Part shown: positions 3,539 to 32,500 of the stretch, piece after piece
Layout: each line of letters starts with the position of its first letter
Position numbering within the stretch: position 1 is the stretch's first letter
Assembly: GCA_964369125.1 (NCBI GenBank)
Contig: CAYJEF010000001.1
Span: 1 to 40,707, forward strand
Length of the DNA stretch: 40,707 bases
Source: an uncultured Christensenella sp.
GTDB taxonomy: Bacteria; Bacillota; Clostridia; Christensenellales; UBA1242
Direction: 5' to 3'
Notes under the pieces: generated by a model
The model's database searches: none
Seen by the model: only the letters and a program-made list of their open reading frames with translations
What the model was told of the DNA's origin: nothing
Made by a program: the position numbers and the translations under genes

Positions 3539-3555
3539 AATATTTTCAAAATACA

Positions 3556-3584: not shown

Positions 3585-3600
3585 ATTTGAAATACTAATA

Positions 3601-3625: not shown

Positions 3626-3643
3626 GTATGAAAGGGTGATAGA

Positions 3644-6745: not shown

Positions 6746-6776
6746 TTTACAACGTGATTTTAATAGACATTATAAT
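6746..6776 (+). promoter_or_regulatory. possible eno promoter (TTTACA ... TATAAT)
   Basis: TTTACA lies at 6746-6751 and a consensus TATAAT at 6771-6776. The 19-nt spacer is longer than optimal, hence low confidence. The SD AGGAG (6806-6810) precedes ATG 6819. Confidence 0.3.
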
Positions 6777-6797
6777 GTTAATTTTGATACACTTTGA

Positions 6798-8132
<1,335 letters not shown>

Positions 8133-8173
8133 TAAAAATTTTGCAAGTTTCTTTACAAAAATTTTATAAAAAG

Positions 8174-8198
8174 GAAGTCAAAAATGGCTTCTTTTTTT
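8174..8198 (+). terminator. probable intrinsic terminator after eno
   Basis: The stem GAAGTC (8174-8179) pairs with GGCTTC (8186-8191) with one G-U pair. The loop is AAAAAT, followed by T7 (8192-8198). Confidence 0.5.
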
Positions 8199-8489
8199 GT
8201 GTTTTTTATAAGTAATTTTTATTATCTTTAAAATAATTTTTGCACAATTATTAAAAAAGAATATTGGCAAAGTTTTACACAAAATCTATGTTTAAATGTT
8301 TACAACTAAGCGTTGTTATTTGTGGACGAAATACAGACAAATTAACATTCGGTTACTTCTTAATTTTATATCTAATTTTACAATTCTACATTCAAAACCA
8401 CTCGTTCCCGACCAATCGTTCGAGAGTTAAAATCATATGATAAATATATTATAATAATCTTTGTAAAATGCTCGTTTTTGTTTGGGTGT

Positions 8490-8517
8490 TTTACATAAAT
8501 ATGCTACTATGTATATT
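8490..8517 (+). promoter_or_regulatory. candidate promoter of the giant gene (TTTACA-16 nt-TATATT)
   Basis: TTTACA lies at 8490-8495 and TATATT at 8512-8517. This is the most promoter-like of several AT-rich matches in the 458-nt intergenic region, so confidence is low. Confidence 0.3.
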
Positions 8518-8590
8518 GAATAATTATATTATATTCTAATACTGAAAATATTTTCAACTTCTGGCGGGAATAATACTTAGGAGGAAGTCA

Positions 8591-11500
8591 ATGGGAAAGG
8601 ATAAGTTTGGCAACGAAATAGGTAAGGCAAACGCGAATACATATTTTGCAAAACCAACCAATGTCGGTGGCGTTTCTTCCTCTGCAAATTCTCAAAATCC
8701 TTCCCAGAATTTTGGGAGACCAAATACGCCAAATTCTAATCAAAATTTTACTCGTCCAAACACAACTAACTCTCAAAATTTTGCTCGTCCAAATGTGCCA
8801 AACCAAAATCAAAATTTTGCTCGTTCAAACACCTCTCAACAAGGAGTGCCAGCGCAGAGAGTTATCATTCAAAATGGGCAAAGAATTGTCGTGCCAAACA
8901 CGCCTAATCAAAACCCAAATTTTGCTCGCCCAAATAATTCAAATCAAAATTTAAACGCAAACCCAAATGCAAATTTTCAAAACTCGGGAGGCGCAAACAT
9001 TCCCCCTTCTTCTGGCGGACAACCCCCTGCAAAGACTCCAAAACCAAAACGTAAGAAAGCGATAATTTTGTCTAGCATAATTATATGTGTCTTAGCGGTC
9101 GTGGGTATAATCATCGGGGTATCCTCCACAACTCCCACGACAAAAAATACTTACACACTCACTTTGGAAGTGGAGCCTTTTGTCGTCTCAAACACTTCTC
9201 TCGTTATAGTGGAAGGAGAAGTCCCAACTCTGCCAAACATCTCAAATGTTATGTCCGCTGACGGCAGAAAAACCCTTGTCGAATTTATGGGCTGGTTTAT
9301 GGACAGTGCAAAGACTCAGGCATACACACCTTCCGCCTTGGAGGGCGATTTGACTTTGTATGCGGGCTACACTCTCGGCACCGTGACGTCCACTTTTTAT
9401 GCTGTGGATTATTACAATAAATCGGGCAGTGGCTCGTCATCTTACATTTTGCTAGGGCAGATAGAGACGACATATTACACTGGCGAAATAAATTTCCAAA
9501 ACATAAAATCGTCGCTGGAGACTTTTACGGGAAGTGTTTATCAAAACCAAAACTCCGTGCTATCCTATTCCCCGCTGACGGGCAATAGAACTGCCACCTC
9601 TGTGACTGTGGCGGACTATAGAGAATTTTTCAGTAAATACTATTATATCTATGCTTTTACCAGCAATCCAAACAATCAAGACAACAGCAGAATATATCTG
9701 GCAAATTCAAGAGTAGAAACGCCAAACAACGACACGGTGTTCCTTGTGTCCATGGAGGCAAAACCCGTTACAATAAAATTAAACTCCAACCTATCGGGGC
9801 TTTTGTCCTACCCAGCCTACACTGGCGGAACATATGACGACAAATTGACGGACGAAGTGGTCACTATAAGCAACCGAAAATATGGCGACAACTATACCAT
9901 CGAAAACTTTACAACCTATCCTTTTAATGTCCGTGTGCCAGACTATCACAACTTTGAGGGGTGGTGGCTAGTGGACCCGCAGTCGGGCAGTGGCATTACG
10001 CCAACAAGCACAAACTTCATAAGTTTTAAGAACTTAACCAATGTCTCAAAACTCCTTGACTGGAGATTTTTAAGTGGCAGAACCGAAATAACACTATATG
10101 CAAAATGGTCGGAAATTTTCGGCGACATAATTATCTACACCGACTATGAGATTGACGCGAATAACAACGTTCTAACAAAATCACAATTAGATTCCTCTGT
10201 GTCCGTTGGCGTTGCGAAATCTCTTAGCGACATTACACAAGACAAAACAAGTTACCTTTATAAAAACGGCAGTGCGCTCCTTGGCTTTAACACTAGAGCC
10301 GATGGCACAGGTGTGAAGTATGACATATACGACGAGGTCCACGGGATAAAAGGCGCGACCCTTGAACTTTTTGCCGTCTACAAACGAATTGTGGACAACG
10401 TCTATATAAAACTGCAAGACGACGAAACCGACCGCGCAACTGTAGACACGAGCGTGCTTGACGCCATACAAAACTCCATAAATTTGAACGTAGCAAGCGG
10501 TTATCTGTTTGAAGATACTGAGGAAATCTCCGTAACACTTGACATCACAAACTGGCAGATTGTAATCACAAATTTGCTGGAGGGTTCGGAATTTACGTTG
10601 CCCGCTATAACTCGTTCAAACTACACGCTCTCGTTTTATCGCTTGGGCGCTGTTACAAAAAACGTGGGGACAACATATGTTGTGTCGAATCTTGATATTC
10701 TCTCCAGTATTTCGGGCGATACTATAACCACTTTCGTCACTTTTCAATCAGTGTGGACGGGAAACCCAAAAACGCTCTCAATTTTTGCCTATCCAACAGG
10801 GGAGAGCACATATGAGACAAAGGCTTTTAACTTGACGTATGGTATGAGATTGTTGCTAAGTTACAGTAAATCTATTCAAAACAACACCACTACTCTTAAC
10901 TGTGTCTTAAAAAATGCAACAACAAACCAAACTTTGCCAAATGGCAGTTTTGAAATTAAACGCGTGGGTTATTCTTTTCTTACTTTTAGAAATGGTGGCG
11001 AAGAAGGCGACGATCTTTTTGATGCAACTTTTGACACAGCATTTGTGTTAAATGACAATGTTTTTGAAATTTTCGGCACTTGGGAAGTGTGTTCCTATAG
11101 CATTACATACAACCTTGAAGGTGGCACCTATTCCTTCCGAGACGACGGTGAAGGCGATACCGCGACATATGAGCAAGACGGGCTGGCATATCAAACGAAT
11201 GTTTTATTGCTGACTGGCGAAGAAGTGACAAAAGAAGGCTATTATTTCGACGGTTGGGGCAGAATTAGCGGGAGAGTGGACTATTCTCCAAGCAATCTAA
11301 ATGCTGTTATTGAAAATGATATGACTTTGTTCGCCGTGTGGGCGCGCATTAACAAAGCAATCGTCCATATGCACGCAGGCAAAACAGGGAGTGAAGAAAT
11401 CTCGGCAGAAAGAGACGGCAGTTTCGCCCTGCCTGCTGACATTTTCGCGGGTTATACTTTCAGCGAATTTAACACTAGCCCTGACGGCACAGGCACGAAA

Positions 11501-14500
11501 TATTTGCCGGGGAACTATAACACAACTGTCGACATCGAACTCTACGCCATTTGGTTTACCATTGTTTTTGACGACGGAGACGACGGCACAAACGGCGTGA
11601 CTGGCACAGCACCTGCTTCAAAAAAAGTCTCATATAACTATACAATCACATTGCCACAAAATCCTTTCATGTGCGACAACTTCCACAAATTCGGCGGGTG
11701 GGAGCATGACGGCAAAATATACACCTCATTCACCGCAGACAACGAATCGGGGCTGGCAATGACCAGCGAAAACGTTGGGGCAACGCTTACTTTCACAGCA
11801 GTGTGGGAGAAGAAGGGCGTGCGCGTGAGTGTTTATTTAAACGGAACAACACAGCAATCTCTCGCGTCGGAACTGGTGAATGCGAATAACACAAACACCT
11901 ACACAATCTCAAGCCAGAACAGAAACTTGCCATACATAGACGACGACCACGAGATTGAATATATAACGGACGGAGTGGACAATTTTTATCTAAACGCCAA
12001 TAGATTTGCAATTATTGTTCCTGACCCAAATCTTAATATGACTTATGATGCAGTAAACGACGAGTTTTCTTATAGAGTTTACGCAGTGTGGAAAAAATGT
12101 GTAAAATTCTACGCCAACAACGGCACTAACGATTATGAAGTCGTGCAAGTGTTATCAAATGTAACAAACTATGTCCTCCCAACTGCGTTTACATTTGAAG
12201 CACCTCACAAAACTTTTGTGTCGTGGGGGATAAGTAACACCGCTTCATATACGAGCGCTTTGGAGGCAGGCGACACCGTTGCGATAACCGCCGACACCAC
12301 TTACTATGCCGTTTGGAGAGGCAATTCTTATACCATAAACTTTGTAGACGAGAGCGGAACTAACGCCTCGTGGTCACTTGAAAACATTTTATATGGTTCC
12401 AGCAGTCTAATTAACCCAAGTGTGGGCTTCAACACGACAGAATATTATGACAGCGAAGAAAACGCCATAAAAGTACTAAAGGGGCTTATATACACATATA
12501 CAGGATCGCCTTCAAAAACCTTTAGTTTGAACTCCCAAACGCTGGAGTTTATTAGCATTGCAGACGGCGGGTTTGTGGCAGACGACGACCTCACCACCGA
12601 CAACATTGTCACAATTAGCGCCCTTTGGGAAGAGAAAACTTATCAAGTGGTCGTGAATATAAACGGCGGGAATTGGACGGATACTGAGGAACAGAAATTA
12701 TCTATGTTCCCTAACCTTATTCTTGAGAATGATTCTATGATATACACAGTCACTTATTCGCAAATTCGAAATGATAATAGCGGACTAGTTTTGGCGTATA
12801 GAGGACTAACTAAAAAGGGTCACAGATTTCTATCGTTTAGTGCAATTTCAAATAACGAAGTGACAGGTTCCGCACCGTTTATCTATAAATTCTCTGGCAC
12901 GGCTGAGGACTTTGACACTGCAAATGGCGGAATGGTTAGCGCGAATTGGACAGAAGTTTACACTCTTATATACGACGAAAACGGTGGTGACGTGGACATT
13001 ACTACCATTCACCAAGTGGACAAAACTGGCGCTAGCGTCAATTTCACTATAATTGAAAGTCCAAACACAAAGCGCCAAAACTGCGATTATGTTGGACTGT
13101 ATTTTACTAAAAATATATCAGGAATATATCCAAATGCAACGACATTCTTTAACTGGGGTGACGCGATTACAATAACGCCAGAGATAATGTCTGCTTATGG
13201 CTTCCCTGAAACGAACACAATTACTCTCTATGTTATTTGGACGGCAGATGTTACTTTTAATTTTGAGCGTAACGAATTGCCAGCGGAAAGGACTTTAAAC
13301 GTGACGGGCTACACCACGCCACAAGGAAACGTCTCGTCAAATGTCATTTCTTTCACCAAAAAATATTTCGTAGGGACGACATTAGACGCAGAAGAACTCG
13401 CGCAATATCGCTATAATCTAGACGTGGACGACTTTATGCAATCGGGTTGGAAATATGCGGGGAACATTATTGACTTGCATTTAGTGTCTAGCAGAGTTAC
13501 ATTAACTGCCGTGTGGGCTTCGCACCCAATCACTATTATTCTTTATGTGGCGGACAATAATTTAACATATGTGAAAGCCACGGAAGTTAGCGTGAACACC
13601 AGCGCAGGTTCCGTGAATGTAAACGATTTATACACCTCTGTGTTTCAAAATTTACCAAGTTTGTTTGGCTATAATTTTGTGGGCTGGAAAACAAGCGGAG
13701 ATTCTAATATAATAAAAGAGACATACGTCTCCTACTATGATTCTATTACACTTTTCCCACTGCCAACCAACACCGCGCAATTATATGCCGTGTATGACTA
13801 TAGTTTTGTGAAAGTTGTTTATGACAAAGTAAATGATAGTGCGGGATACAACAATGCAGAAAACGCCGAAGTTTACGCCAATATTCTCTACGGCTCGTCA
13901 TATCAAATTAGAAATGACATTCCATATGCGCTAAATTTCTTCTCCATTGTCGGCTGGTCGGCAAGCGCGAATATATACGACATAAATTCCGTTGTGTCGG
14001 TGACACAAGAGAACGGAGTGCAAAGGACGTTTAACTCAAGCACCGGCAGATATGACTATACTCTAAGGCTACTAGCGCAGTGGCAAAGGGACATAGCAAC
14101 TATTACCATAAATCTCGAGGGCGGGATTTTCAGCAATACTGCTGGTGGCACGCTTTCACCTTTCTATCCAATATCGGGCAATGAATATATAGAGAGTTTC
14201 AGCGGGGAGGGCACGAGCGTTGTTGTTTTATCCGTCTATATTGGGGCTCTATCAGGCAACTATGGCTTCAAACTGCCAACAAACGCATATATTTCAAAGA
14301 CTGGCTCTATGCTGAAAAACTATTACAACCTTGTGGGAGCCACCGCTTCGCCTGACACACTTGTCGCATGCGAGACAAAAACCAATATATCATATTACGC
14401 AAACTGGCTGGAAGAAATTGCTATTAGAGTTTACTCCAACACTTCAAACACCGATGAAAACTATTTTACAATCACTTCTGCAATGACAAGTAACGTGAGT

Positions 14501-17500
14501 ATAAGTGCTTCGGCAAACGATTTTAGAGTGAATAATTTGCCTATTTCTTTCACAAATGACCACTATAGAATTGCGTCACTTAACAGCAAACGCGACGGGA
14601 CAGGCATACGATATAACACCTCAAACTATACATTAAATGACGAAAATTTTAACATTACCTCTGGTGTCGCCAGCATCTATTGCCAGTGGATTGGCGTGCA
14701 AGTGACAGTCACCATTGATATGCAGGACGGTGGCGGGATTGCTACGGCTCGCACGACCACAATAAGCACAACATACGGTGCAGACATTAACTTGTTTAGT
14801 TATTACACTTCGGACATAAACAACAGGGCGGACTCAGATGTTGCGTTGGTTTTTAGCCACTATGTAGACCAAGACGGTAACATATACAACGAAAACAATA
14901 AGTTTTTCAACACAAAAAACGTCGCGGAGTTTAACTCAGAGGGTTTCACCATTCACGCCAACTGGACGAATAAAATCTTTACAGTCACATTTTACTATGA
15001 CAGTATAAACTATAAATATTCGGGAACCGACCCTTCGCTTAAAGCCGAAGAGGGCAAGAACGAAATAGAGCGCTATTACATTGCGGGCGCCACCGTGCCT
15101 CTCATCACTGGCACATACTGCGTGAATATAAACGATGTCGGCAAGACATACCCTGTGTATTATTACAGAGGCTACACCGACGAAACGGGCAAACTATACA
15201 CCGAGGCGTTCCCTATGGTCAAGCGTGACATTACGCTGACGATCGCGTGGGGGACAAGAAACTTCAAACTTGCTATAGAACCAACAGGTTCGGCGTTAGA
15301 AGAAGAATATCATTTCAGCGAAGCAACCTACGCTGGAGTCACCCTGTCCTCGCCATATTCATTAAACGAATCTGGCAAACTTATTGTTAGTAATCTGACG
15401 GTAAATTCTGCGGTAGATTTTAAGAATGTTCCGCGTGCAGTAAACACAGGGTATGATTTTGAATATCTCCTGCTTATGAATTATAGCATTGCCACACAGG
15501 AATACACGGACACCAGATTATATGGGACATCGTCCGTATTCACAATTAGTCAAGACTTGTTGACAAACTCCGACGCATTTTGGAGGATTTCTGGCGCGTC
15601 TGGGTATTTTGAAATAAATTTTGTATTAGAGTGGCAACCAATAACATACATTGTTAATTACTCGCGAGAATTGCCAAAAATCGAGAATGGCTATTCTGCG
15701 TCGGCATCTTCGTCGGTGGAAGGCGCGCAAAAATCGGATTTGTTCACATATAATTCACTTTCCACATTGCAGGGCGGTTATTTGCTCTATGGTTGGACGC
15801 AAACGGGCTGGACGACCAAGCAAATGGTAAACGAAAGGACGCAGGAAAACTGCTTCTATTTCGACGAAGAGGACGATAACGCTTTGAACAAGGAATATGT
15901 CTATAACTTATCCATTATAGGCGAAGAAATAGTAACGCTCTATGCAATTTGGGAGCAAAATTCTTTTACAATAAACTTTATTGACGACAAGGGCGAGAAT
16001 GTCGCAGTCGCAGAGTTTTTATATGATAGTGTTTTATCTCTTGAAGATTTGTTCCCAAACACTATTGTTACTAGCACTTTTGACACATACTACTATACCT
16101 TCAAAGGGTTTGATTATTTGGAAAGATTTGTGACACTAGACGAAGAAATTGTTTTTTCCACGAGTTTATTAAACAATGGGTTTATAGTCACAAGTGACCT
16201 TGACGACAATACTATTGAATTAAATTCGGTGTGGGAAGAAGTGGACTATAACTTAAGGCTGGAACTTGGCTACGGCATATATTTGTCGCGCGCAAACATT
16301 TTTAGATACAACTATGATTTAGCGACTTCCACGCACAACATCACGCACAATATTAAATATTCGCAAATAAGTTCAAATGACGGCGTTTTGTTTAGCACTT
16401 ATATGGGGCTTGACGAGTCACTGCTTGTGAAAAGTGACTTTACTTTCGCCGGTTGGTCGCTAAATTCGCAGGCGCAATCTATGAATTTCTTGGCGGGAGG
16501 CGAAGTGAAAGTTGTGCTTGAAACGCCCGAAATCACACTCGACTCTTCCGGCAATTATACGTTTATTCTATACGCAATGTGGAACGAATATCACCTTCAA
16601 ATAAACGCAAACGGTGGCACGGGCGACACGGCGCTTGGTGAAGCAACGCAAGACGGAATAAATTGGACTATAACCGAAGATTATGCCTATGCCTACACAT
16701 ACTATGGCAAAAATATTACGCTGACAAACGCGTTATACGGAATGTTTGAACGCGCGAACTACCACATTCACCTAACTAGTGTTCCACTTATTGAGGTGAC
16801 AAGCAATTTGCAGTTTGACACACCTTGGACGGGCAACGAAAGATATATAGTCCTAGACCCAACGCAAAACGGGCAAACAACCGCCACTTTTGGCGCATTT
16901 GACGAAAATGCACTTGAAACGCAATATTCGGTGGAAATTACTAGCCCCGGATATATTGCGGTTACGCAACAGAACGCCGATTATGTCTACTATTATGACT
17001 ATGCGACAATGCTTGGGCATTTCGTATTATTGGCTGACGGGCAGAGCATAACAGACAAAATCTATGTAAAACAAATCGCTAATGCCATAATGATTAAGAC
17101 TTACTTTGGCGTCAGAATTGGGATAATCAGCAATATAACTGCCACAAACGCGGGTATGACTTTCTCCGGCTGGACAGACGGCAACAATAATTTCTCCACG
17201 CGAGACATCACCGTCGGCGGACTGGATAATGAAATCACATATCTATATCCAATATGGGACACGGACTATGCTTATTTTGAACTAAACAGCGGACTGTATG
17301 GCGCAAATACTCAGATTGATTATCTTGGCTATCCAGTGACATCAGAGTTGCAAAGCGACGGCGTTACAACCAAATATTTCGTCAACTTGCCACCTGTCGT
17401 CTCAGGCGATTATGTTGGTGTTGGACCAACCAAGCAGGGGTATTATTTCCTCGGCTGGTCGGCAATATATAAAACTTACGCGGAATATGTTGCAGACACA

Positions 17501-20500
17501 AACCCAGACAAGCAAGCACCATACAATCCAGAAATCACTCCACGAGTGGAAACGGCAGGAGGGAGCATAACATTCTATGCTATCTATCAACCTAGAACTT
17601 ACACTTTTAAATTTACTAGCAAACAGAGCCCAAATGACACCTTACTAGGCGGTTATAACAGCGAAATTGTTACAATAGTCGCAAATTTTGACGATGTAAT
17701 CTACTTTCCAGTGAAAAACGACGGGACTACTAACGGCACTACTATTGGAAGATGGTCGTTCCCTAGACAATCATTCTCTCATTGGTTAATTGGCTCTAAT
17801 AATTTTAGCCAAGGGTTTAAATTCACTGTAAATGTCCAAAACTTAAACAGCATAATAGGCAATTTTGAATCTCGCTCGGAAATAGAATTTTGCTCTGTGT
17901 GGGTTGATGCGGTTGTCGTGGTGAAAGTAAAACTCGGCGCAGGAGACATCTATGACTACATCGGCGACGAGAGTAAATATGACGTGGTGTTTGACGGTCA
18001 AAACACCTATCTTGTGTCTGAAAACGAAACACTTGGGCAACAATTTATTCTGCCAACATTGACCAACTACTACACCTTTGGCAAAAGCGCAGTGAGATAC
18101 ATTGACAAAGGCGGTGCGGAAATCCCAGTGGGCGTCAGCAGTGTAACTATCTCAAGTGAAAAGTTGGAAGCGGGACTCGACGCAAAGGGTAGGTTTGTAT
18201 ATATATTAACTCTCAGGTGGGAAAACGCCGAGTGTTATATCAAAGACTACTATGGCGTCGGGACAAATATACACTACTTTTTCTCAAAATTCGATAGCGC
18301 CATAAATTTCGTGGACGCAGACACTCTTTGTGCCACCGCACCAAATTATAATATTTTCATTCTATCCAATGCCGGCAATATTTCTTTGACAAAAGGCGTT
18401 ACGATAACTTCGGCGAAAAACTTGACGATTGCGCTTGATGCCACTGTTTCTGTTTCAGTAAACATTGTCAAACACTCCACATTTATTGGAAATAATATGT
18501 TTAATATCACCAGTGGCGGGTCTCTTTCAATAACCGCCGAGGGTTCAAAGGGAACGCTTGTGATAAGCGGAGCGTTTGCGACCAGCGGAGCGCTTATAAA
18601 ACTAACAAATGCCACGCTAAATCTCGGCAAAAATGTGACGCTTATAAACAGCAAAAATAATACAGAAGGCAAAGGTGGTGCCATAAACTCCATCAACAGC
18701 ACACTTAACATTAATGGCACGAGGTTTGAAAACAACTCCGCTCAACTAACCAACACAACTTCCTCGTATGGCGGGGCTATTTACGCCGAAAACTCACAAA
18801 TAACTGTCACACAAGGTGTGTTTTTGCAAAACAAAGCCAAAAGTCCAGCAGACGCATATGGCGGAGCAATTTATGTAACGGGTGGAACATTATCCATTTT
18901 GCTGGCACACTTCAAGCAAAACTCGGCGGACTATGATATTTCGGCTTCTTCTTATGGCGGGGCAGTGTATGCACAAGGCACAGAATTTAGTTGCACAAAC
19001 GCGTCAAGCACCATAATTTACGAGCAAAATTCGGCAAAAAATGGCTCTGCAATTTATCTCAAAAACTGTACAGACGCGGTCATTTCAAATGTTCACCTGC
19101 TAGAAAACGACAGTGTTGATGGCGGGATATATCTGTATAGTTCCACACTATATCTCTCAAATTCACTTGCTACATACAACACGGCGACTCGTGGCGCTGG
19201 TCTGTTTGTAAACAATTCAAATGTGTCCGTCACTTCTTGCGAATTTTCAAACAACACTAGTGTTTGTGGCGGGGCGATATACATTGAAAATGCAACGCTT
19301 ACCTCCACTGCCACTTTGTTTAACTCAAACTCTGCTCAAGGGACAGAAGTCCAAAGCGGTGACGGCGGAGCCATTTGTGCAATCGGCAGTTCTACCCTTA
19401 TAATAACGGGAAGTGTGTTTGAATTAAACTCTGCCACATATGGTGGCGCAATCTACACTGGTGGATCGACGGTTTTAACTATAAACAAAAATAATTTGAC
19501 CAAAAGCGCCTTTATTAGCAACACGGCCACCAATTCTGGTGGTGCGTTATACCTTGACTCGTCGGCGACAACATCTAGCATATTAAACGCAAAATTCTTA
19601 GAAAACAGCGCAACAAACGCCTCGGGTTCATCTACATATGGCGGAGCAATCTCGTTTAATAATGGTGAAACCACTTTAACAAGTGTCAGGCTTGTAGGCA
19701 ACAGCGCCACAAATGGCGGGGCAATGTTTATTTCGGGCGCGAAAGTCCGCGCGACATCAGTAGACACAATATATATATGTTATACGTTGGAAGACGGCAC
19801 GGTGATAGACAAAGAAGAATATTCCACAGGCAATCTTGTCTATGAAGGAGAGGGCGAAGAGAGCAGTCCACTTGAAGTAATAATCAAAGGAAACAATTCA
19901 GAATATGGCGGTGCATACTACGTCGCTTCGTCCGGCATTTTGTTACTGCTTAGTGGTGAAATTACTTCAAACGACGCAAAATCTTTTGGTGGCGCAATCT
20001 ACAACATTGGCACAATAACGATGACTGCACCAAACTTTGCGGAAAACACCGGGAACTCCATTGTCCACAATGTCGGCATTTTGGAAATCGTGGGGAATGC
20101 GACATTTGGCAATTCACAAACAATATATATAGATCAAAGAGAAGACACTTCCTACTACTATATAACCATAAATATAAACAACTACGACAATAATGGCGAA
20201 AAAATCTATTTAATGTTTGACCTCGTCGGCTATATTCTTAATATTCCTGTGGTAAAATTTACAAACACTACTTATTTTGAAAATTATAAGAATGGCTATA
20301 AAGTTTTTGAGGTCTACGACTCGTCCATTTTCCTCATCTCGCCAAGCAGGACTTCTGCGGATTTGGTGCTTTATCACCAAAACTATAAACTATATTTTAG
20401 CGATGTAAGTAAGGACGTAAACAAAATTACACTGCCTGAACATATAACCTTTGTGTATGATGAGTCTCTTTCGCAAGAATTCGTGGACCTTGTGAACACA

Positions 20501-23500
20501 TACTCCACACAGCGCACCGACTATGTCTTTAGAGGTTGGGCGTATTATTTCACAAACGCGGACAACAAAGGCTCTAGATCTATAGCCACAAACACTGAAA
20601 TATTCGAAATTATTGCTAATCCAAACAGCAACTATCGCTATTTCGAGACTTTGCTATCAGACTTTATTATGCCACCATATGACATCTATCTTTACGCTGT
20701 GTGGGAGGCAAATATCTATGAAATTTCGTATAAATACGACACATATTTAGGCGGTTCGGGCGACAGCAGTTACACCATATTTGGTCAACCAATTACGAAT
20801 GCAAGACTAGACAATTTAAAACAAAACCTCAAATATGGCACTCCCTTTACATTCCCAGCGTCCAGCAAACTAAATTCCTATTCTATAGTAGCACAGGCAC
20901 AAATAAACGACGCAAACCCAACAGATTTTACGAGTATAAAATCTCAAGTGCAGTTTGTGAACTCCGAGCGCGACCCATATGTCTATCCAAAGCAAATAAC
21001 ATATTTTGAGAACGACCAGACCATTTCTTGCGATGTCTATTCAAATGATGGCGTTTACTATTTCTATTGCGAAAGCGTTAAATATATCTTGCGCCAAAAT
21101 TATCGTCCAGACGGATATGTCCTAAATTATTATGAGATAAACGGGAGCAGATACACAACATATGGCAAGCAGTTTGAGATAAATGAAGCGTTTAGCGCCA
21201 ATATAAGCGACAAGAAGATTGTTATAACTCTCTACTACTCGCAAATTTCGCTAAACGTAGAAGTGAATTCAAACGGCGGAGAAGGTGATTTCATTATTGC
21301 AAACAACAAAGTGGGCGACGAGTTTTTGGTGCCATACAACAAATCCGTCACGAACTATTCCTCCTCTTTTGGAGCAATCTTCACGCAGTTTATATACAGG
21401 CAAAACCATGAACTTTTGGGATTTTCTAGAACTCAAGAGGACGCAAATAATGGCATAGTGGACTTCGCTCCCGGCGAGGCGTTTATAGTCACTGAACTTT
21501 CGCAAAATTCTATGATTATCTATGCTGTGTGGGGAACCGCGGTGTGCTTTGTGAAAGACGCGATAACCTTTAATGGAATAACAAAAGACATCTATTATAT
21601 GTCTCTAGATGAGGCTCTACTAGACGTCAACAATGCTTTGTATGCTCAAATAAACTCCACTATAATAATTATCGCCCAGAATGTCACACTTTCCTCGCCA
21701 ATAACAACAATGACAAATATTACAATCCTGCCAAATATCAGGGGAGTAGAGTTGACACTTGCGGGCAATTTTAGCACTACCGAAGCGTTTAAAGTAACAA
21801 ACTCATTTACGCTCACATTTGGGCAAAACGTCCCAGGAGATACCACTACTTTGACCCTAAGCGGGACGGGGACAGCAAGGGAACGAAGCGCAATAAACGT
21901 TGCGCTAGGTGGCAAATTAGTGTTAAATCAAAATGTCATTGCTCGCGACTGGCTTATCACATCGGGTCTTGCATCAAGCTATGGCGCGTTTGCTACAATA
22001 AGCGGTGACCTTGACATTAACGGCGCAAAATTCTTTGGAAACACTGCCATAAACGGCGGGGCACTACACGTGGCAAATGGTGGCAAAGTCACCATAAATT
22101 CTGCGGTGTTTGGCGGGGCTGGCGCCGAGAAGAATTCGGCAACAAAAGGCGGGGCTATATACCTGTCTGTCGGTGGTGGAATTACCATAAATTCTTGCTC
22201 GTTCATATACAACTCTGCCACAAATGGTGGCGCAATATATGTGGCGAACAACGCAAACTATTTTAATGTTTTGTCTGCGGAGTTTTCTAGCAACACCGCT
22301 TCAAACGGTGGTGGAGCATTATTCACAGCAAATGCCATAAGCCTTGGCGAAAGTAGCAGCAGTCATATTACTTTTACCGCGAACTCCGCTCTATCCGGAG
22401 GGGCAATCTATACCGAAAACAGTTTGACCGTTGCATATAACGTGTTCTTTTCTTCAAACCAAGCCACAAATGGAGGTGCCATATATTCCACGGCGTCTTT
22501 GGACATTTTATGCGCAAAATTTGTGGGAAACATTGCGACGACAAACGGCGGTGCAATCTACATTTCGGGCGCAAATATTTTGTCAATCAGTTCTAATAAC
22601 GCTACAAGTGACATTTCTCAAACGCTTTTGTCGTCAAACGGCGCTACATTCGGCGGGGCTATATATAGTAACGGCGCAAACGCAACCATTTCAAACGTGC
22701 TTTTGTCTGGTAACTATGCCGAGACTGGCGGTGCTATTTGCGTGCAAAACGGCACAGTGACGCTGACTGCGCTTGCAGAAATCTACGCAAACGGCAAGCG
22801 TGGCGACGTTGTCGTGACTAAATATGGCGGTGGCGTGGCAACACTTGAAAATGCAACACTTATGGTTAGTGGCAAAATCAGCGGGAACTTTACTTCCATT
22901 AGCGGTGGTGGCGTGTATGCCAAAGACACTTCCAAAATAGTTTTGAAAGAAACCGCGCTAATATCTCAAAACACTTCAAGCGTGAATGGTGGCGGTGTGT
23001 ATCTTGGTGGCGGTAGCAGAATAACAATGAACGGCACCATTTCAAATAATGTTGCGACAATTTCGGGCGGTGGAATTTATCATACGTCCAGCAATGCTCA
23101 AAGCGAATTTATCTATGGTTTGATAGAAAATAATCGTGCAAACTTCGGCGGGGCACTGTATCTATCTAACCTTGAATTTGACGCCGCGGTGACCCTAAAA
23201 GGAACAATATTCTCAGGAAACACTGCAACAAACACAATGTCAAACGAAATTTATGTTCAAGACGACACAAAACTGACGATAACTTCTTCCACAATTCTTG
23301 GCAACATTTATGTCACGTCGTCATATCAGACGGAATTTGTGCAACTGGAACTGGACGTTGCGGCAGTGGTGGACAAAGTTTTTCTCACGCGATATTCCTT
23401 TATAAACGTTCTTAACGAACTGCGAGCATACATAACCGCAAACGACGAAATGAAGATTAAAATCGTGCTAGCGGACTCAGCCACTTTGTATAAAAACAAT

Positions 23501-26500
23501 GTTCTGGAAAACAAAATTCTTGTAACTTTCAGCAACAATCTTGAACTTCTCACAAAAAACAAAGACTTCTTCACCCTCGAAATCGGAAACGATGAATTTG
23601 GCTCACCAATAAAGGGCTACGCGCTTTATGCCAACGAGGACCCAAACAAGAACTGTTTGCAAGTGAAAGAAGCCGCCGACCACATCAATATAAATCCAAG
23701 TGGTGGCACGCTTATTTACACAAATCCTCTTACAGACGAGCAAACTTTCTATACCTCAACGTTTACCCTAAGTCTTAAAGAAGATAGTGAAACGACACTG
23801 AAAATCCTTGAAAATATCACGGGCGAACGCTTAGGTTACCAATTGAAATCTGGCGAATATCTATATAGGAAAGACGCGACAACCATAATAAAATACAATT
23901 CTAGCAACAACAAACCAATACTTGGAATAACCCTTGAAGCGCAGTGGGAAGAACTCGAATTCACGGTCTACACTGTCGACGCAAGCACACAAACGCAGAC
24001 GGAATATGGCAAATATAAATATTCTCAGCGTGTTACTTTAAACACCCCTTCTCTCAACCACTATCGCTTTGTAAATTGGGAAGTTGCCTATAAAAATAAC
24101 GGCGTTTTGACGCAAACGGGCATATATTTTAATTCGTCAAATTTTGCTGACGGCAAGTTTAGGTTCTCTTTGCTCTCAAGCGACAACCTTGTTCCAAATA
24201 AAGAATACACATACAATGAAATTTACGCCGAAATCATAAGTAATGATATGGAAATTTATTTTGTGCCAATCTTCGTGCCAAAAGTGGTGTATATCAAAGT
24301 CTATGCCAACACTGGAAGCATTAGGGAAATACTCTCGACGCAGACGCAAAATTATAACCCAGAAATTTACAGCGACTATATTATATACACCATAAATCAA
24401 TATCAACTCTATGTTAATTACAACGAATTTTCCTATGACTTTATGCTCGCAGACCACGCAATCGTCGGGCTATACACTGATATGGACGTAGACGGTTACA
24501 CCGAGGGCACGGACGTAATGTATAGAGACTCAAACAAAAATCCATCAATCAGCGTGTTTGGGCTTCGCGACGAGGAAGTTATCTCTCTTTATTGTTATTG
24601 GCAAGAAGTTATCGCATATATTGTGAAAGCAGGAACGCAGGAGCAGGAATATTTCGACTCTATTTACACTGCAGTTACCTCACTTTCAGACGGCGACGAA
24701 CTGGTGCTGGTGAAAAAATCCATTTCTATAAACAAACCCCTGACATTCAGCGCAAATGTAACAATTTCGTCCACCGATAATATAGTCATTTCGCGTGCCT
24801 CGGTTTTCAGCGGGAATATGCTAAACATTTCAAGCAACGTGACGTTTAGACCTGAGTTTACGATAACTATTGACGGGGTGAAGAGCCAACACACAACGGG
24901 TTATAGCGGAATTTATGTGAATAACGGGAGTACGCTAACATTAAACTCCAACGTAAAAGTAATAAATCACGGGAGCACTTCACAGGGCGCTGGCATCTAT
25001 TCCAAAGGCAGTGTCATCTTAAACGGCGCCGAGATTTCAAACAATACGTCTTCAAGACAAGGCGGTGGAATTTATTCCGTTGGAACGCTGACTATAAACG
25101 TTGGCACTAAAATCACCGGCAACACCGCAAATTTCGGCGGTGGCGTGTATATCGCCGAAGATGCTTCTAGTTTCGTTATGTTGGGCGGTCAAGTGAACGC
25201 AAACACGGCAACTCAGGGCGGTGGCATATATTTTGCCAGCAAACTCTCAGGCGTCATTTTGAGCGGAGAAATTTCAAATAACAACGTTAGTTATGTCGGC
25301 GCAAGCAACTATTATGGCGGTGGCATTTACATCGCCCTCAACAGTGGACTTCTTACCTTTGGTGACACATCTAGCAACTTTCCAACCATTTCAAGCAACA
25401 AATCCCACTATGGCGGTGGCATTTACGTCCACGGCAACGACGCCAGCAACGCTGATTATAATGTGCTTATAAACAACATTTTAATCTCGCAAAACGAGGC
25501 GACGTATGGCGGTGGCATTTGTATTGGCGACAACACCACTTCCGCCAGCAACCACACCGTGCTTATGCAGGGTGGCGAAATAATAAACAATCGCACCGCT
25601 ACATATGGCGGAGGATTATATATCGTGCGCGGAAAATTCGAAATCCGTGGTGGCGAAATCTCTGGGAACAAACTCCCTTCGGACATAACATATAGAAACA
25701 TATATATTGGCGCTCAAAATGCGACAAGCGTTGGCATCGTCAGAATATATGGTGGCACGATAGGAAGCGCGAATGACGGCGGGAAGATTTACATCGATCG
25801 CACTTTATCAAAGGCGGGACAACTGCACTTTGGCGGAATAAGTGGCACGACACTTACCATGAATGACCATATCGACCTTGTGCAGAATATGTATGTCAAT
25901 ATTTTAAGCCCACTAAATTCGGGCGTTGTCATAACCATTGAACCTCGCACCGTATTGCAAAATAATAGTGACAAATTCCTCGTCGCAGTGTTTGCAAATA
26001 ACATTGTCGCCACCGACGCAATATTCTTCATTGACGATGACGACAGTCGTTTTAGAGTATTTGGTCAAGAAATATATGTAACAAAGGCAATCTTTAGCCT
26101 CTATCTAGACCCAACTTTTGGCATAATTTCCGACAATGGGCTTGTGGGTTTTGATTATGTCATCGAGAACAACATTTGGATTGTTCAAGTCCCAAATTTG
26201 AGACCGTTAAAAGATATTCTTGATAAGATAATCGTACGCGCCACAAACCGCGACTTCATTTCGTGGCTGGTGGGTGGCACGCCAGTTGCGCTTGACGTGG
26301 AAAACGCCACTATGTCCAAAGCCGACCTTACGCTATTGTGTTCGTGGACAGACATCTATCGCACGCTGACAATAGACCTGAACCACACCAAAGGAAGCAG
26401 CGGTGAGCGCGCAGTTTTGAGCAATACATCGCCAATCTATCCTTATTACAGCCAAGCCACAAACACAGTTACCCTAAAAGTTTTTGTGGGTGGACAACTG

Positions 26501-29500
26501 ACAAAAGAGGGGCATAGCGCGCTTCTTGACCTAATCGGCAACGCACAGAGTCCATATTTAACACGAAATGGCTATCAATTTGCATCGTTTAACATTTCTC
26601 AACTAGGCACCGGCGCAAATTATGAATTGGCGGATATTTTTGAAATGCCAGATAGCGACCTTGTTTTATATGTATTGTGGGAGCCTAAAGAGTTCACTAT
26701 CGTTTACCACGCGAATAAACCTGTGGGCGCTTCGGACACGGCAACACTTATCGACCAAAGCGTAACTTGCAATTTTGACACCTTCGTAATTATTTCCTAT
26801 AGTGATATATTCTCTATAACGGGCTGGAAATTCTATAACTGGAACACATCTGCCGACGGCACAGGCACGAATTTTGCTTTTGGCACGAAATACAATTTTG
26901 CATATAACGCCAGCACAACTCTTGACTTATATGCCATTTGGACCCCAAACACATACACCATAAAATATGACGCGGGCGACAATTCTTCTCAAGTCACAAA
27001 CACTTTCAGTGACAGCACAACATATACCTATGACACACAAAGAACTTTGCCAACGGGTTCTTTCACCGCAGTTGGATATACGCAAACAGGTTGGAGTGAC
27101 GACTTTGGCAACAATTTCACATTTGGTCAAGCCGTTAGTAATCTTACGACAGAGGGAGAATTAACACTCTATGCCGTGTGGACGCCAGTCACCATAAAAG
27201 TGTTCTTCCACAGGTCAGGGGCAAGCGACGCCAGCATATACGACGTTACGTTTGCATATGCCGACACAGAACATAACACTCTGCCTCTCGTGAACACAAT
27301 TCCTGGAATAGACACCAGTTACCGTGTGTTCAAAGGTTGGAGTCGTTCCCCATACAGCGTTTGGAAGACGGCGAAAGCGACCTTCATCGACGGCGCAGAT
27401 ATTTCTTCACACTTAACCTCGGGCGACATTCATCTATACCCAATCTGGGCACCATATTCTGCCACAATTCATAGCAACACCACGGGCGAAACCTTTAGAA
27501 CCTATGAAGTGGATAGTAACGGCGAAGTGGAACTCACCTTAACGGAACTCGCGAGTAGATTTAGCAGACTAGGCTTTGAGATTGATTATTTGTCTAACAC
27601 TTCAAACCTTGCAAATTCAACCAGCACATATATGTTCACAAACGGCAGTCTCGTCATTGATTTTGCAATGCTCGGCAGTACACTCGACTTATATATTGCT
27701 TGGAAAGCAGTGACATACACGGTGGAATTTGTGGCAGGGGACATCACCCTTGATGACAAATTAGTCACCACCACGCCAGACGGCACCTCGTTTGCCTCGG
27801 TCGGCGACATTTTAAGCATCACGCTTTATGGCTCAGACGATATAGGAGACACATTCGAGGGTTGGTCGTTTGACGAGCAGTTGTCCACATTCGACGCAGA
27901 ATTGTCACAAACTTTCATGCTAACGTATGACATTCTGGAAAAAATAGCCAACTATCAAACGCTGTCAAACAACACAATCACAATATATGCGCTCTCAACC
28001 ATAACATATAAAATAACTTATGACTTAAACGCCGACGGTCACAACGTCATAAACGCCAGCACGTCGGAAATTTTGTCAAACGGCACGAATATTACAAGCG
28101 ACATTAGCATAAACGACACCGCAAACATTGTCTTTGCGGACAAAATGGGCAAAGTGTGGGAGATTGCGGACATTCAAACGAGTAATGTAAATTCCCGCTA
28201 TGCCTATTTCCTCGGCTGGGCAGAGGACGCAAGTGCGAGCGTGCCAACATACTCTCCTCTTGGGATTTCAACGGCGCGTTTTGCCAAAGACATTACGCTC
28301 TATGCCGTTTGGCAAGATTACACCAATCCATTCTATTTTAATTACACTAATTCGGCAATTACGGGACTAAGCGCTATTGGCGTCAGCAACCTCAGCGCAA
28401 ACGCCAGCATAGTTTTGCCACATCACGCGCTAACCCTCTCGGGCGGGACGCTCACCATTGGCGAAACAATAACTTCGGTAGGGTTTGCACAAAATAATGG
28501 AAACAGCAATATTATTTCGCTTGACTTCTCTCTTTCTACGGCAGTTACGACTCTTCCAGAGTTAGCCTTTGTCAACCTTTCGAATTTGACTTCTGTCACA
28601 AATTTGCCAGTAAATGTGAATATTGCAAACGGAGCGCTATCAAGCAAAAATCTTTCTGAAATTACCTTTATAGGCGCACAAAACAAATATTATTTTGACA
28701 CGGACGGCAATATGTATGTTATCGCGAGCGGTGTCGCCGAACTTCACACGGCACTGGTAAAGATTTCGCTATCGGTCGATGAATTTATTTTGAAAGGCAC
28801 TGTCAACCTATCTGGCACGAACTACACTATCTCAAAACTACAAAAATATGCGCTTTACAACACCGAATATGTGTTTATAACAATTCCAAACTCCGTCACC
28901 GAGATTGCGGGTAGCGCCTTTATGCAAACCGAGTATTTGGTCAACCTTACTGTTCCATTCGTGGGCAAAAATCAAACCGAGAACACCTCTCTTGCCTTTG
29001 TGTTTGGTGGCGCGGATAACGTGCCGTCGTCGCTTAAAAAAGTTACTGTAACAAACCAAACGGAAGTAAAAGCGGGAGCGTTTAAAGATTGCAATGACAT
29101 AACGACCGTCATTTACACAAGTGGCACAGTCACAGTTGTGAACGACGACGCCTTTAATGGTTGTGCCTCGCTTATGCTAACAGGACGAGCGGGCGAATTG
29201 AACCTTGAGTCTCTTGAAACAGTTGGTAACAACGCCTTTAACGGTTGCGTTAGTATAGAAAGTCAAATTAATCTTGCCAGTATAATTACTCTTGGCGATA
29301 ACGCTTTTAGTGGCACAAACATTCAATTTGTGGAAATTAACCGCAACGCACAAAACGTCAGCAACCTTGCCTTTGCAGGTGTCACGACGCTCACGCAAGC
29401 GCGTGTGTTTAGTTTAATCGCCTTTGACGCAGTCATCACAAACACGGGAATCTTCAAAATGCTTAGCGATAACTTCACTAGCGACCAGACAATTTTCGTT

Positions 29501-32500
29501 TCAGCCCATTTCTTCTCCATAATAAATCGCGAAGAAAACGCAGAATATTTGGAATATAATATCGTTGTCGAAGATATGATAGAAGTGTTTAACGCAAACA
29601 AGGATTTTGTGTCTAACCACGCTAGCCTTGAAAGCGCAATTCAAAGCGCACAGCGTGGCGACTATGTTGTAGTCAAATATTGTGAAATTCTAACTAGCAG
29701 TATACTGATAAACAAAGACATAACAATTTTTTCTGCATACGACCAACTTGACTCCGAGAACGAAGCCGCAAACGACTATAACAACAGAACTGTAACGCTT
29801 TCTCGCGACGCCACACTTGCTGGCAATGTGTTCCTCATAAATTCAAACAACGTGACGTTTGGCTATTCTGGCACGTTTAAAGACTACAAAGTTGTGGCAT
29901 TAAATATCGTCGGCAACAATGACGCAAACAGTTCCAGTTTCTTCTCCGTCATAGGTGGCGGTTTGACATTAAGTGGAAACGTAAATATTACAGGGAACCA
30001 AGCGAAAACGGGCTCTGTTGCATTCATTTCCGACGCTCAAGTGGTCGTGAATGGCGCAAAAATCTATGGCAACAAGGCGGTAGAAGAAGGCGCTAATCAA
30101 AACACTGGCAACGGCGGAGTGTTCTATCTTGCCACAAAATCCACTCTTGATATTATCTCTGGCGAAATTTATGACAACACTGCCACGCGTGGTGGCGTTG
30201 CATATTCAGTAGGTCACAGCATAATATCAATCAATGGTAGCAATGCGGACGCCGTGAAAATCTACGAAAACTCCGCCAAAGAGGGCGGTGTGCTTTACAT
30301 TGCTTCCACAATTCTTGACGAATCCGCCACAAACTATGTGGGAAGATCCAAAATTTATAACAACAGCCCAGAGAACTACACAAACTCGTTTGGTGGTGCG
30401 TTCACCATTGCTGGCGGTATGCTCAAAATTACTGACGGCGCAGAGGTGTATGGCAATTCGTCCGGCAACGGTGGGGCAGTCGCGGTAAAGAGTGGCATTT
30501 TAATCATCGGTTCGGCAACCATAGGCGGGAGTTCTTCCGCTCAAGCAAACTCCGCTCTTTCATACGGCACCTCGCAAGGCAACAAGGGTGGCGGTATTTA
30601 CGTGGGCGATAACGGTATTCTAAGAGTAACCGCAGGAGCACTCATTTCGAACAATCAAGCACGATTTGGTGGCAACATCTACTTTGGCGCGACTACAGGC
30701 GGATATGCTTCCATCATTTCAGGTGGCGTAATCTCTTATGGCAACAGTCTTGTGAGTCTAAGCAACAGCACAAACCACTATGGTGGAGGCATTTACGCAA
30801 CAGGCGGTGTTCTAAACATATATAATTGCACCATTTCAAACAACCTCGCGGGCTATGGCGCAGGCATCTACACCATTTCTACAACTCTCTTTGTTAATTA
30901 TGGCACGTTATTTAATGGCAACGACGCAGGTAAGGACGGAGGAGGGTTATTTGTCGCAAAATCCGCGAGCACAAAAATAATTACAATAGACGGCGCGACG
31001 TTTAGAAACAACTATGCAACCACGAATGGTGGTGCTGTGGCAGTGGTCGGCGACGAAGTCGACATTCTCTGCTCCACCATTTCAACCTATATCGGCGTCA
31101 AAAACGACGTATTATACGCTAGCGAGCGTTATAAGGGCGGGAATAATGCAGGTGTTAACGGTGGCGGACTATATATCGCAGGCGAAGGCAAAGTTAATAT
31201 CCTTGGCGCCAGCAACATTCAAAACAACCAGTCAAACACTGGCGCTGGCATATACTTCTATAATGGCGGACTTATTCTAAAAGGCGCTAACATTTCATAC
31301 AACACTGCGACCACCAGGGGTGGTGGACTTTATGTCAGCGACGGCATCGGCGACGGATACAGGAGTAATGGTGCGTTTTTAAGTGTGTTTGAAATCTACG
31401 ACAACGCGACATTCTCGTTAAACACTGCACAAGACGGAGCAGGACTATATTTAGACAACAGGCAAATAGCAATTTCCAGCGCGCGTTTCACTTCAAACAC
31501 TGCACAAAAATCAAACGAAACAAACGGCAAAGGTGGCGCAATATTTGTTAGCAGTGGCGCAGTTTTGACACTTGACGACGTTAGAATAGAGCAAAATATA
31601 TCCACAAACTCTGTTGCATATTCGGGAATATACCTAAACAGCACTTCGCCAAATGCTTTACAAATAACAAATATGCTTCATATGCAAGTGTCAAGAAGTA
31701 TTGCAACGGGCGCCGACACCTCAAACCCAATCTATCTCATATATGGCGCGACGATTATGGTCACAGACAAATTTGTTAGTGGCAGACCAATAAAAATATA
31801 TATGGAACAGGTTTTAGAGGTTAACGAACGTGTGCTTATTGCGCGATTTAATAGCAGAGATGACGCTTCTAGCGCGAAATTTACCGCCGAAGAAATCGTG
31901 TTTATGCAACAAAACGAAAACATCTACGCCGCACAAGCAACTGTGAAAGATTACACGAGCAATGTTTACTATGCTTCCATAAACGACGCCGTCTCCCAAA
32001 CTACGGCGCAAAAACTATATCTAATGCTCCTAAGAGACCAATACATTACGTCTAGTATGACTATTGAAATCCCGCAGGGTAGGGAAGTTGTCATAGTCTC
32101 GCGCCCACGCGAAGATAACGCGACACTGGGCTACAAGATTTACAGGCAGTTTGATGAGCAAGACAAAAACACAGGAACGCTCTTCAATGTTCGTGGCACC
32201 CTTACTATATATTTGGCAAACAGCGATTACAGTTCGTATAGTTCTGCCGAGTTTTATGGCGTTCCAGTCGTCATCGACGGTCAAAGTAACAATCAAACCT
32301 CAGAAATTTGCTCATCTCTTGTCCAAATCTACAAAAATGGCACTCTTAATGTAAATTCGATGGCATATCTCATAAACAACCGCGCGCAAAATGGAGGAGC
32401 AGTTTACGTAGGTGCAAACGAGACTTTAATGGCGGGCGATATTTCTGCCACATTAAACCTTAATGGTGGCAATATATTCAACAATTCTGCCGCCAAAAAC

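Follow-up and report, generated by a model that had tools for sequence, protein, structure and literature searches.

A long basic Q/N/P-rich head ahead of a probable N-terminal signal anchor in a giant adhesin of an uncultured Christensenellales-like bacterium

In monoderm bacteria, N-terminally anchored proteins, which keep an uncleaved signal peptide with the N-terminus inside and the C-terminus outside (Nin-Cout), form a standard category of surface proteins (PMC2375117, PMC3415414), and a rule applied in secretomics expects their transmembrane (TM) domain within the first 100 residues (PMC3415414). The adhesin-like proteins (ALPs) found in Methanobrevibacter smithii as well as Methanosphaera stadtmanae are large and N/T-rich, and K/R/N residues come before their single N-terminal TM helix; they carry right-handed beta-helix domains, a few of them scoring as Chlam_PMP, plus outward Ig-like stalk domains (PMC11532034). 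Giant proteins of 10,000-30,000 aa with Listeria-Bacteroides repeats and leucine-rich repeats (LRRs) were described from gut Clostridia by West-Roberts et al. (bioRxiv 10.1101/2023.11.21.568195). The export and retention of surface proteins of >10,000 residues are largely unexplored, and giant-protein surveys list domains and barely touch targeting or anchoring. Here we describe the N-terminal region of a giant adhesin encoded in a 40,707-nt stretch of contig CAYJEF010000001.1 (the window), from a genome labelled uncultured Christensenella sp. The gene occupies 8591..40579 (+) as a single uninterrupted open reading frame (ORF) of 10,662 aa, and the interval 8591-9121, which a preliminary description of this DNA had singled out, corresponds exactly to aa 1-177 of the giant protein.

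We read this N-terminus as a cytoplasmic head of 156 residues followed by what is probably an uncleaved N-in/C-out (type II) signal anchor, the N-terminal tether of a clade-specific giant fibrillar adhesin in an uncultured Christensenellales-like Clostridia bacterium. The helix spans aa 157-177, with the uncharged span reaching aa 181, and its 19-residue Kyte-Doolittle peak is 3.17; AlphaFold2 (AF2), based on the family alignment described below, also predicted a helix at 158-179. The second-best peak in the whole protein is 1.95, at aa 5796-5815; a second TM segment was rejected there on account of this value, the NN and D that the stretch contains, and its location in a beta-helix region. 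A K/R cluster, KTPKPKRKK (aa 148-156), lies directly before the helix, and the 15 aa before the helix contain six K/R vs one after it; across all 15 family sequences, the span is flanked by 5-9 K/R before and 1-3 after. The preliminary description had proposed a single N-proximal membrane helix, and this stands: it is the only TM-grade segment of the protein, and a strong positive-inside bias is found in all relatives.

Relatives were sought with an exhaustive HMMER search using aa 1-420 against 1.84 billion representatives, which identified 13 true relatives (P0001-P0013 minus P0010), 12 of them distinct from the loci L001 and L081. Locus L001, found via its enolase (84% identity), belongs to a metagenome-assembled genome (MAG) labelled 'uncultured Christensenella sp.' and carries the same six upstream genes; its giant frame, directly after enolase, is open and runs off the locus, and P0001 is a near-identical strain variant of it. 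Locus L081, found by a metagenome scan with a two-sequence alignment, is syntenic, its giant gene likewise starting directly after enolase, and lies on a 134-kb contig (Ga0247842_10000204). The more distant orthologue P0013 (4,150 aa; locus L082, 2157-24609) lies directly downstream of enolase and has the same head-TM-ectodomain layout; it is followed in L082 by overlapping ORFs of 1,980 and >3,215 aa, on a contig with ~3x coverage. Almost certainly, the L082 ORFs are parts of a single giant gene that sequencing frameshifts have split; it encodes at least 9,300 aa with faint Chlam_PMP similarity, and the case illustrates that public assemblies systematically fragment this giant family. The metagenomic relatives are singleton clusters (one has two members) from ENA/Logan assemblies. 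A word-indexed protein search and a genome-contig scan, both with the N-terminal 400 aa, found no relative; a protein search with the family profile A2 also returned nothing from a collection in which members are present, probably since low-complexity words swamped the selection.

All 15 family sequences, the window included, share one layout: head, K/R cluster, span, short linker and conserved domain. The head is 47-319 aa long across the family, low in complexity, with an abundance of N, Q, P, G and R; in the window protein the helix begins at aa 157, and across the family at aa 48-320, and a linker of 3-6 aa leads from the span into a conserved InlB-B-repeat-like domain. Because the layout recurs in all 15 sequences, the head-anchor feature does not reflect chance. 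The giant gene is vertically inherited and clade-specific, neither an isolated oddity nor an assembly artefact.

The uncharged hydrophobic span is 21-25 aa long in 14 of the 15 family sequences and 30-32 aa in P0009; the family mean is 24.6 aa, with 18.6 strongly hydrophobic residues. The same HMMER search supplied the signal peptides for comparison, as 50 further matches were ordinary Flg_new proteins that aligned at aa ~220-280 only. About 35 of these 50 proteins begin with a short signal or lipoprotein peptide, and a C-terminal TM helix is present in about a dozen; an N/Q/P-rich head occurs in none. In 35 canonical signal/lipoprotein peptides from these related Flg_new proteins, the span is 18.8 +/- 3.9 aa long with 14.9 strongly hydrophobic residues, and the family span exceeds it in length (Mann-Whitney p=1.4e-5) and in hydrophobic residues (p=3.8e-5); the spans measured for the signal peptides take in the c-region, which makes this a conservative comparison. 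Because the span is significantly longer than the cleavable signal peptides of Flg_new proteins, N-in/C-out type II anchoring is the best reading. The ordinary relatives also speak to a premise of the preliminary description, namely that a barrel or LPXTG/GW anchoring classically goes with PMP and Flg_new repeats: LPXTG is present in 0 of the 50. This corrects the assumption that such repeats point to autotransporter or sortase anchoring, and it is relevant to automated localisation calls in metagenomes.

The scans for other sorting and retention signals were negative. String searches detected no LP.TG, LP.[TSA][GAN] or NP.TG anywhere in the 10,662 aa and no GGxGxD (RTX) in the whole protein, and the Kyte-Doolittle profile contains no C-terminal hydrophobic segment. 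When the full 10,662 aa, split into three pieces, were scanned against Pfam, nothing matched the autotransporter family PF03797; in an NCBIfam scan that included LPXTG, PEP-CTERM and T9SS sorting models, only POMP_repeat matched, and neither scan of the giant protein matched RTX models. Within the last 3,662 aa, no Pfam family was identified at E<=0.01, and the C-terminal 190 aa gave only noise at E<=1. In the head (aa 1-156), we found no KxYKxGKxW or YSIRK-like motif, and there is no secA2 or secY2 among the six upstream genes, the downstream side lying outside the window. The string, hydropathy, Pfam and NCBIfam results, all empty, bear out the earlier claim that the protein has no C-terminal anchor, barrel, RTX or sortase signal, and the scan of the whole protein for LPXTG, PEP-CTERM, T9SS and PF03797 likewise found none of these. 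As no other anchor was found, removal of the helix would leave no detectable device that keeps the protein on the cell.

Residue counts for aa 1-156 (N 34, P 19, Q 15, S 13, G 12) confirm the N/Q/P-rich, low-complexity head of 156 aa, ending in KTPKPKRKK, of the preliminary description. Of the five QNF[AGT]R[PS]N units reported there, four are exact (aa 39, 51, 62 and 74), but the fifth is PNFARPN at aa 109, which requires tolerance of a Q-to-P replacement; in the DNA of the head, Tandem Repeats Finder (TRF) identified a 36-nt period with 3.1 copies at 8720-8829. Under the Michelitsch-Weissman criterion, a Q/N-rich (prion-like) sequence has >=30 N+Q in 80 residues. One 80-residue stretch of the window head contains 34 N+Q, above this cut-off, and 8 of 14 family heads contain >=30 N+Q per 80 residues; Q/N-rich (prion-like) is a label by composition alone. 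Of the 14 family heads, 11 have a net charge of +12 to +21, and those of P0003, P0006 and P0012 one of +2 to +8. The AF2 family model, computed from an alignment of 13 sequences with the L081 row left out, gave pLDDT <50 for aa 1-156, in agreement with the disordered head proposed earlier, save for a weak beta-hairpin at 91-100 (RVIIQNGQRIVV). Neither Pfam nor NCBIfam has a family that matches the head. Matches of the head plus TM segment to ETRAMP, a PRK13481 glycosyltransferase and PknB were dismissed as generic juxtamembrane similarity, since they fall far below cut-offs and involve only the K-rich/TM stretch.

The hairpin-like motif QRVIIQNGQRIVVPN is near-identical in L001 (QRVIIQNGKRIIVPN) and L081 (QRVIIQNGKRIVVSN) and unrecognisable in more distant relatives. 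The repeat units differ among orthologues (QNFARPN in the window, NGQRPLGQN in L001, few repeats in L081), but a shorter motif ending in RP is found across distant members in several variants: QNFARP and QNFSRP in the window head; QNFARP, QNFSRP and NGVRP in P0013; GNFSRP in P0007; QNGVRP and QNGARP in P0005 and P0011; and NGQRP in L001 and P0003. Across 14 heads, the pattern [NQG][GFNQ]xRP was observed 36 times vs 2.5 expected from composition-preserving shuffles (2,000 rounds; shuffle maximum 9). Position preferences around RP read Q-N-[G/F]-[A/V]-R-P-[N/V]-Q, and QN[G/F]xRP is present in 1-8 copies per motif-bearing head. Between the near-identical strains L001 and P0001, 6/179 head positions differ vs 50/2,928 in the ectodomain; the head thus evolves somewhat faster. 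An alternative frame at 8646-8954 (+) contains a 102-aa ORF with a TTG start that overlaps the head; it is most likely a by-product of low-complexity repeat DNA and no gene.

Several observations weigh against the favored reading. The preliminary description stated that no A-x-A follows the helix, which is literally true; however, the window has GVS↓S and VSS↓T, which conform to the rule of small residues at -3/-1, as do SIS↓N, SSA↓K and GIS↓K in relatives, and a conserved Gly is located ~5 residues before the span end, an arrangement like that of a signal-peptide c-region. That the host is a monoderm is drawn solely from the MAG label and enolase similarity. The QN[G/F]xRP-type motif is absent from 3 of 14 heads (P0006, P0009 and P0012), and motif counts within a sequence are inflated by tandem duplication. 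All relatives are contig-end fragments, so there is no second C-terminus for comparison, and if the W/K-rich C-terminal tail of the window protein were a wall-binding module, as it could be, the argument that the helix is the only anchor would be undone.

Alternatively, head and hydrophobic segment together could be a very long signal peptide cut by signal peptidase I (SPase I) after the conserved G-x-x-[S/A/G], with the giant protein then released or held non-covalently at the wall, for example by its C-terminal W/K-rich tail. Such cleavage is possible because of the small -3/-1 residues, present in the window and several relatives, and the conserved Gly near the span end; the orphan aromatic/basic tail would fit it as well, and large adhesins with long leaders are known. 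According to the LocateP authors, it is notoriously difficult to predict what becomes of such proteins (PMC2375117). However, the span is of TM length and significantly longer than the signal peptides of related proteins, and the candidate sites are not conserved: L001 and L081 have IMMS↓TP, P0011 has LLS↓PP and P0013 has FVA↓PH, with Pro at +1 or bulky residues at -1/-3 in several relatives. Heads of up to 319 aa would be leaders of extraordinary length, and neither a KxYKxGKxW/YSIRK-like motif nor an upstream secA2/secY2 accompanies them. We consider cleavage unlikely, though it deserves to be taken seriously. We assign far less probability to a module for signalling or regulated release, in which the helix anchors the protein while the head serves as effector in a trans-membrane relay, as in anti-sigma RsgI-type bitopic sensors; an intramembrane protease would free the head upon pulling or binding of the fibre, and the head would then act in the cytoplasm. 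The bitopic N-in layout combined with a short hairpin-like motif (RVIIQNGQRIVV) in the three closest orthologues, the recurrent RP-containing motif, and basic heads that could bind nucleic acid are compatible with such a relay, whereas head length (47-319 aa) and sequence vary greatly, no anti-sigma, DNA-binding or other folded domain was identified (Pfam and NCBIfam empty; AF2 disorder), and the adjacent genes within the window encode neither a sigma factor nor a protease.

It is barely conceivable that the start is mis-annotated; translation would then begin further downstream, which would make the hydrophobic segment an ordinary signal peptide and the head a leader that is not translated. 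Spurious ORF extensions can arise from low-complexity repeats, and three in-frame GTG codons (aa 69, 86 and 101) are located within the head. These are the only in-frame alternatives before the helix, and a downstream start was rejected as none of them has a Shine-Dalgarno sequence; even the nearest, the GTG at aa 101, is 55 aa upstream of the helix, whereas the ATG at 8591 has a perfect AGGAGG. A GGAGGAA block also precedes the giant-gene start in L001, L081 and L082, the M-x-x-DKFG N-terminus is kept in the orthologues L001 and L081, and frame and head are maintained in L001, L081 and 12 metagenomic relatives despite differing repeats and lengths.

Under the favored N-in/C-out anchor, the mechanism we infer, with non-cleavage, a Sec route and a role for the head, would run as follows. 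Based on general Sec biology, the ribosome would first make the basic disordered head (~156 aa), which would be kept in the cytoplasm. The K/R cluster and the ~24-residue helix would act as an uncleaved type II signal anchor that engages the signal recognition particle (SRP)/SecYEG, possibly with YidC; the acidic ectodomain (~10,480 aa) would be threaded outward co-translationally, and the helix would exit via the lateral gate and hold the fibre in the membrane. The predicted outward order is a Flg_new-type stalk nearest the membrane, then PMP-type beta-helix and LRR blocks, with the C-terminus as distal tip. The long, hydrophilic, polycationic head may keep the N-terminus locked on the cytoplasmic side, and it may rest against the anionic inner leaflet; it may also, or instead, bind a cytoplasmic partner, and the conserved motif leaves room for a specific one.

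The preliminary description had suggested, as speculation, that the head is a spacer or a docking site; docking gains some support from the family-wide QN[G/F]xRP, but the suggestion is speculative still. In a stronger version, the head would be a functional cytoplasmic module peculiar to this giant-adhesin family and not a passive spacer, with QN[G/F]xRP and the RVIIQNG[QK]RI[IV]V hairpin, the latter in the closest orthologues only, docking a partner for giant-fibre export. A factor for targeting or translocation, or else a positional landmark, would be a candidate partner, with the proposed task of starting, sustaining or localising the minutes-long co-translational export of a >10,000-aa fibre. 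We regard this stronger version as doubtful; if true, giant surface proteins would have in such a head a cis-acting device for export and anchoring that had not been described before.

The membrane-proximal ectodomain (aa ~187-400) is the conserved signature of the family (Y.V.FVTGPF ... LVEFTGWY.D ... TLYAGY), and AF2 with the family alignment gave it pLDDT >90; Foldseek aligned the first ectodomain to the InlB B-repeat with TM 0.76-0.77 (normalised to the target of 72-73 residues; 0.76 for 2y5p), and the Flg_new match to this domain is weak. In the whole giant protein, Pfam identified Flg_new, Chlam_PMP and LRR_5 only. Based on the motif map, the membrane-proximal domains are followed by a W-containing modular stalk of ~3,000 aa, which surrounds the clear Flg_new domain. 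The PMP-type blocks lie at aa ~3250-3750, 4500-5000, 5500-5750 and 7250-10500 and are densest, per 250 aa, toward the C-terminal end; the matching models were Chlam_PMP (Pfam E=1.4e-18) and POMP_repeat (NCBIfam E=1.7e-14). The C-terminal tail stands apart from the remainder of the protein and has too little hydrophobicity for a TM segment, and the C-terminal 190 aa had neither a homologue in two large protein collections nor a match to a Pfam or NCBIfam family. An AF2 model made from the last 330 aa as a single sequence was uninformative (mean pLDDT 42.8; ~30 in the tail), and the tail could form a tip or a cap, or else be a wall-binding module of an unrecognised kind. The ectodomain as a whole is acidic (538 K+R vs 915 D+E), while the head has a net charge of +15; T, G, S and N each make up ~10% of the ectodomain, and the protein contains 9.9% Ser without serine-rich repeat (SRR) blocks.

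Upstream of the giant gene, the window has a series of housekeeping genes, which encode a nucleotidyl-transferase, a small exporter, an MBL-fold protein, BipA and enolase. A terminator behind enolase (8168-8197) is followed by a ~390-nt AT-rich spacer in which a scan identified promoter-like sites, and downstream of this terminator the giant gene appears to form a transcription unit by itself. A non-coding block at 8407-8432, CCCGACCA(A/G)TCGTTCG..GT.AAAA, with a CGAC..GTCG-like dyad, is common to the window, L001 and L081; a second conserved block at 8482-8517, TTTGGG...AAATATGCTAyTATrTAT, overlaps the promoter-like site at 8490-8517 and is also present in L001 and L081. The upstream region of L082 contains CGGTCGAAAAGT in two copies. 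The conserved intergenic blocks may be an operator that regulates the giant gene; an Rfam scan of the whole window, these blocks included, identified no family. At 522-1931 (+), a 469-aa ORF without a Pfam or NCBIfam family has a textbook lipoprotein signal (MKIIKKFLVIMCLVLVLPLALTAC↓G), with syntenic 463-aa ORFs at the same position in L001 and L081; this ORF shows that ordinary short signal peptides are in use in the source organism as well.

Table 1. Coordinates of features of the giant gene and its upstream region within the window.
Feature	Position	Strand	Description or support
Promoter-like site TTTACA-16-TATATT	8490..8517	+	Scan; block conserved in upstream alignment of window, L001 and L081
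Shine-Dalgarno AGGAGG, perfect	8579..8584	+	6 nt 5' of ATG at 8591
Head, aa 1-156	8591..9058	+	Basic (net +15), N/Q/P-rich, predicted disordered
Hairpin-like motif QRVIIQNGQRIVVPN, aa 89-103	8855-8899	+	Sole hydrophobic beta-hairpin-like element of head
Membrane-spanning segment AIILSSIIICVLAVVGIIIGV(SSTT), aa 157-177/181	9059..9133	+	Kyte-Doolittle, AF2, family conservation
Membrane-proximal ectodomain, aa ~187-400	9149..9790	+	Flg_new/InlB B-repeat-like beta-grasp, then second alpha/beta domain
Flg_new (Listeria-Bacteroides repeat), aa 836-915	11096..11335	+	Pfam E=2.9e-20
GG[AGS][ILV]/FxxN PMP-type right-handed beta-helix blocks	18341..40100	+	Chlam_PMP, POMP_repeat, motif density
BspA-type LRR_5 block, aa ~6746-6861	28826..29173	+	Pfam E=2.8e-19
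Orphan C-terminal tail, ~110 aa (aa ~10550-10662)	~40238..40576	+	W/Y/K-rich; 7 W, 3 C, K/R-rich

As far as our literature searches reached, the long, basic, Q/N/P-rich, motif-bearing cytoplasmic head before the anchor of a giant adhesin is a new element, and two giant-protein surveys (10.1101/2023.11.21.568195, PMC11573180) make no mention of a head/anchor layout. The principle of N-terminal anchoring itself is already known, and the 'inverted anchoring logic' of the preliminary description was an overstatement, as such anchoring had been recognised before (PMC2375117, PMC3415414, PMC11532034). What this locus offers is a concrete, conserved N-terminal module (head, K/R cluster and TM-length helix), encoded by a giant gene that is inherited vertically in uncultured gut-type Clostridia. 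It raises the questions of whether an uncleaved signal anchor is enough to export and hold such a fibre, whether a long basic disordered tail fixes orientation or recruits machinery, and whether QN[G/F]xRP is a binding site. Should the head turn out to be no more than a spacer, what is described here is an N-anchored adhesin that is ordinary except for its size.

Membership in four known classes of surface protein was rejected. The GGA[ILV]/FxxN repeat passenger is present, but there is no PF03797 barrel as in type Va autotransporters; no LPXTG-like motif, C-terminal hydrophobic stretch or NCBIfam sorting model indicates a sortase substrate; the RTX giant adhesins of type 1 secretion systems (T1SS; LapA and SiiE type) are excluded by the lack of a GG.G.D string and of RTX models; and the serine-rich repeat proteins (SRRPs) of the accessory Sec (aSec) system are excluded by the lack of KxYKxGKxW, SRR blocks and upstream secA2/secY2. 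Extended signal peptides of large adhesins include the ~90-aa leaders of SRRPs exported by aSec, the extended signal peptide region (ESPR) of autotransporters, and YSIRK. Like these, the giant adhesin has a long N-terminal extension before a hydrophobic export signal on a very large adhesin; unlike them, it lacks their defining motifs, its span is of TM length, and its extension is of low complexity and up to 319 aa long in the family.

The chlamydial Pmps, which are type Va autotransporters (PMC10715098), share GGA[ILV]/FxxN beta-helix repeats and matches to Chlam_PMP and POMP_repeat with the giant adhesin. However, the giant adhesin is without a PF03797 barrel, no Pmp middle region was detected in it, and its anchor is at the opposite end; Pmps belong to a diderm host and have a short cleavable signal peptide, whereas the giant adhesin belongs to Clostridia and has its hydrophobic segment from aa 157. 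With the Listeria InlB/Flg_new proteins, the giant adhesin has in common a B-repeat beta-grasp fold near the membrane and clear Flg_new Pfam matches; it lacks their GW modules, LPXTG and N-terminal internalin LRR cap, and its B-repeat-like domain, unlike that of Listeria InlB, is a stalk element directly after the TM helix.

The West-Roberts giants resemble the giant adhesin in size class, habitat type, Flg_new/LRR vocabulary and presumed adhesion role, but that survey describes no N-terminal head or anchor, and its Oscillospiraceae RCC1 giants are without TM anchors. The methanogen ALPs, compared by architecture alone, are alike in gut habitat, repeat richness and anchoring logic; they are archaeal, apparently not homologous and much shorter, with an archaeal Big stalk instead of Flg_new/B-repeat, and, unlike for the giant adhesin, a long disordered head is not described for them. 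As in monoderm N-anchored proteins, the giant adhesin combines a single N-proximal Nin-Cout helix, Sec-type export of a C-terminal ectodomain (as proposed here), and the lack of LPXTG, lipobox or wall-binding domain. Its helix at aa 157 lies beyond the ~100-residue TM rule (PMC3415414), which is an operational cut-off and not a mechanistic requirement. Whereas the usual members of this category have a cytoplasmic tail of a few residues and an ectodomain of hundreds of residues, the giant adhesin has a basic, motif-bearing tail of 156 aa (47-319 in the family) and an ectodomain of ~10,480 aa.

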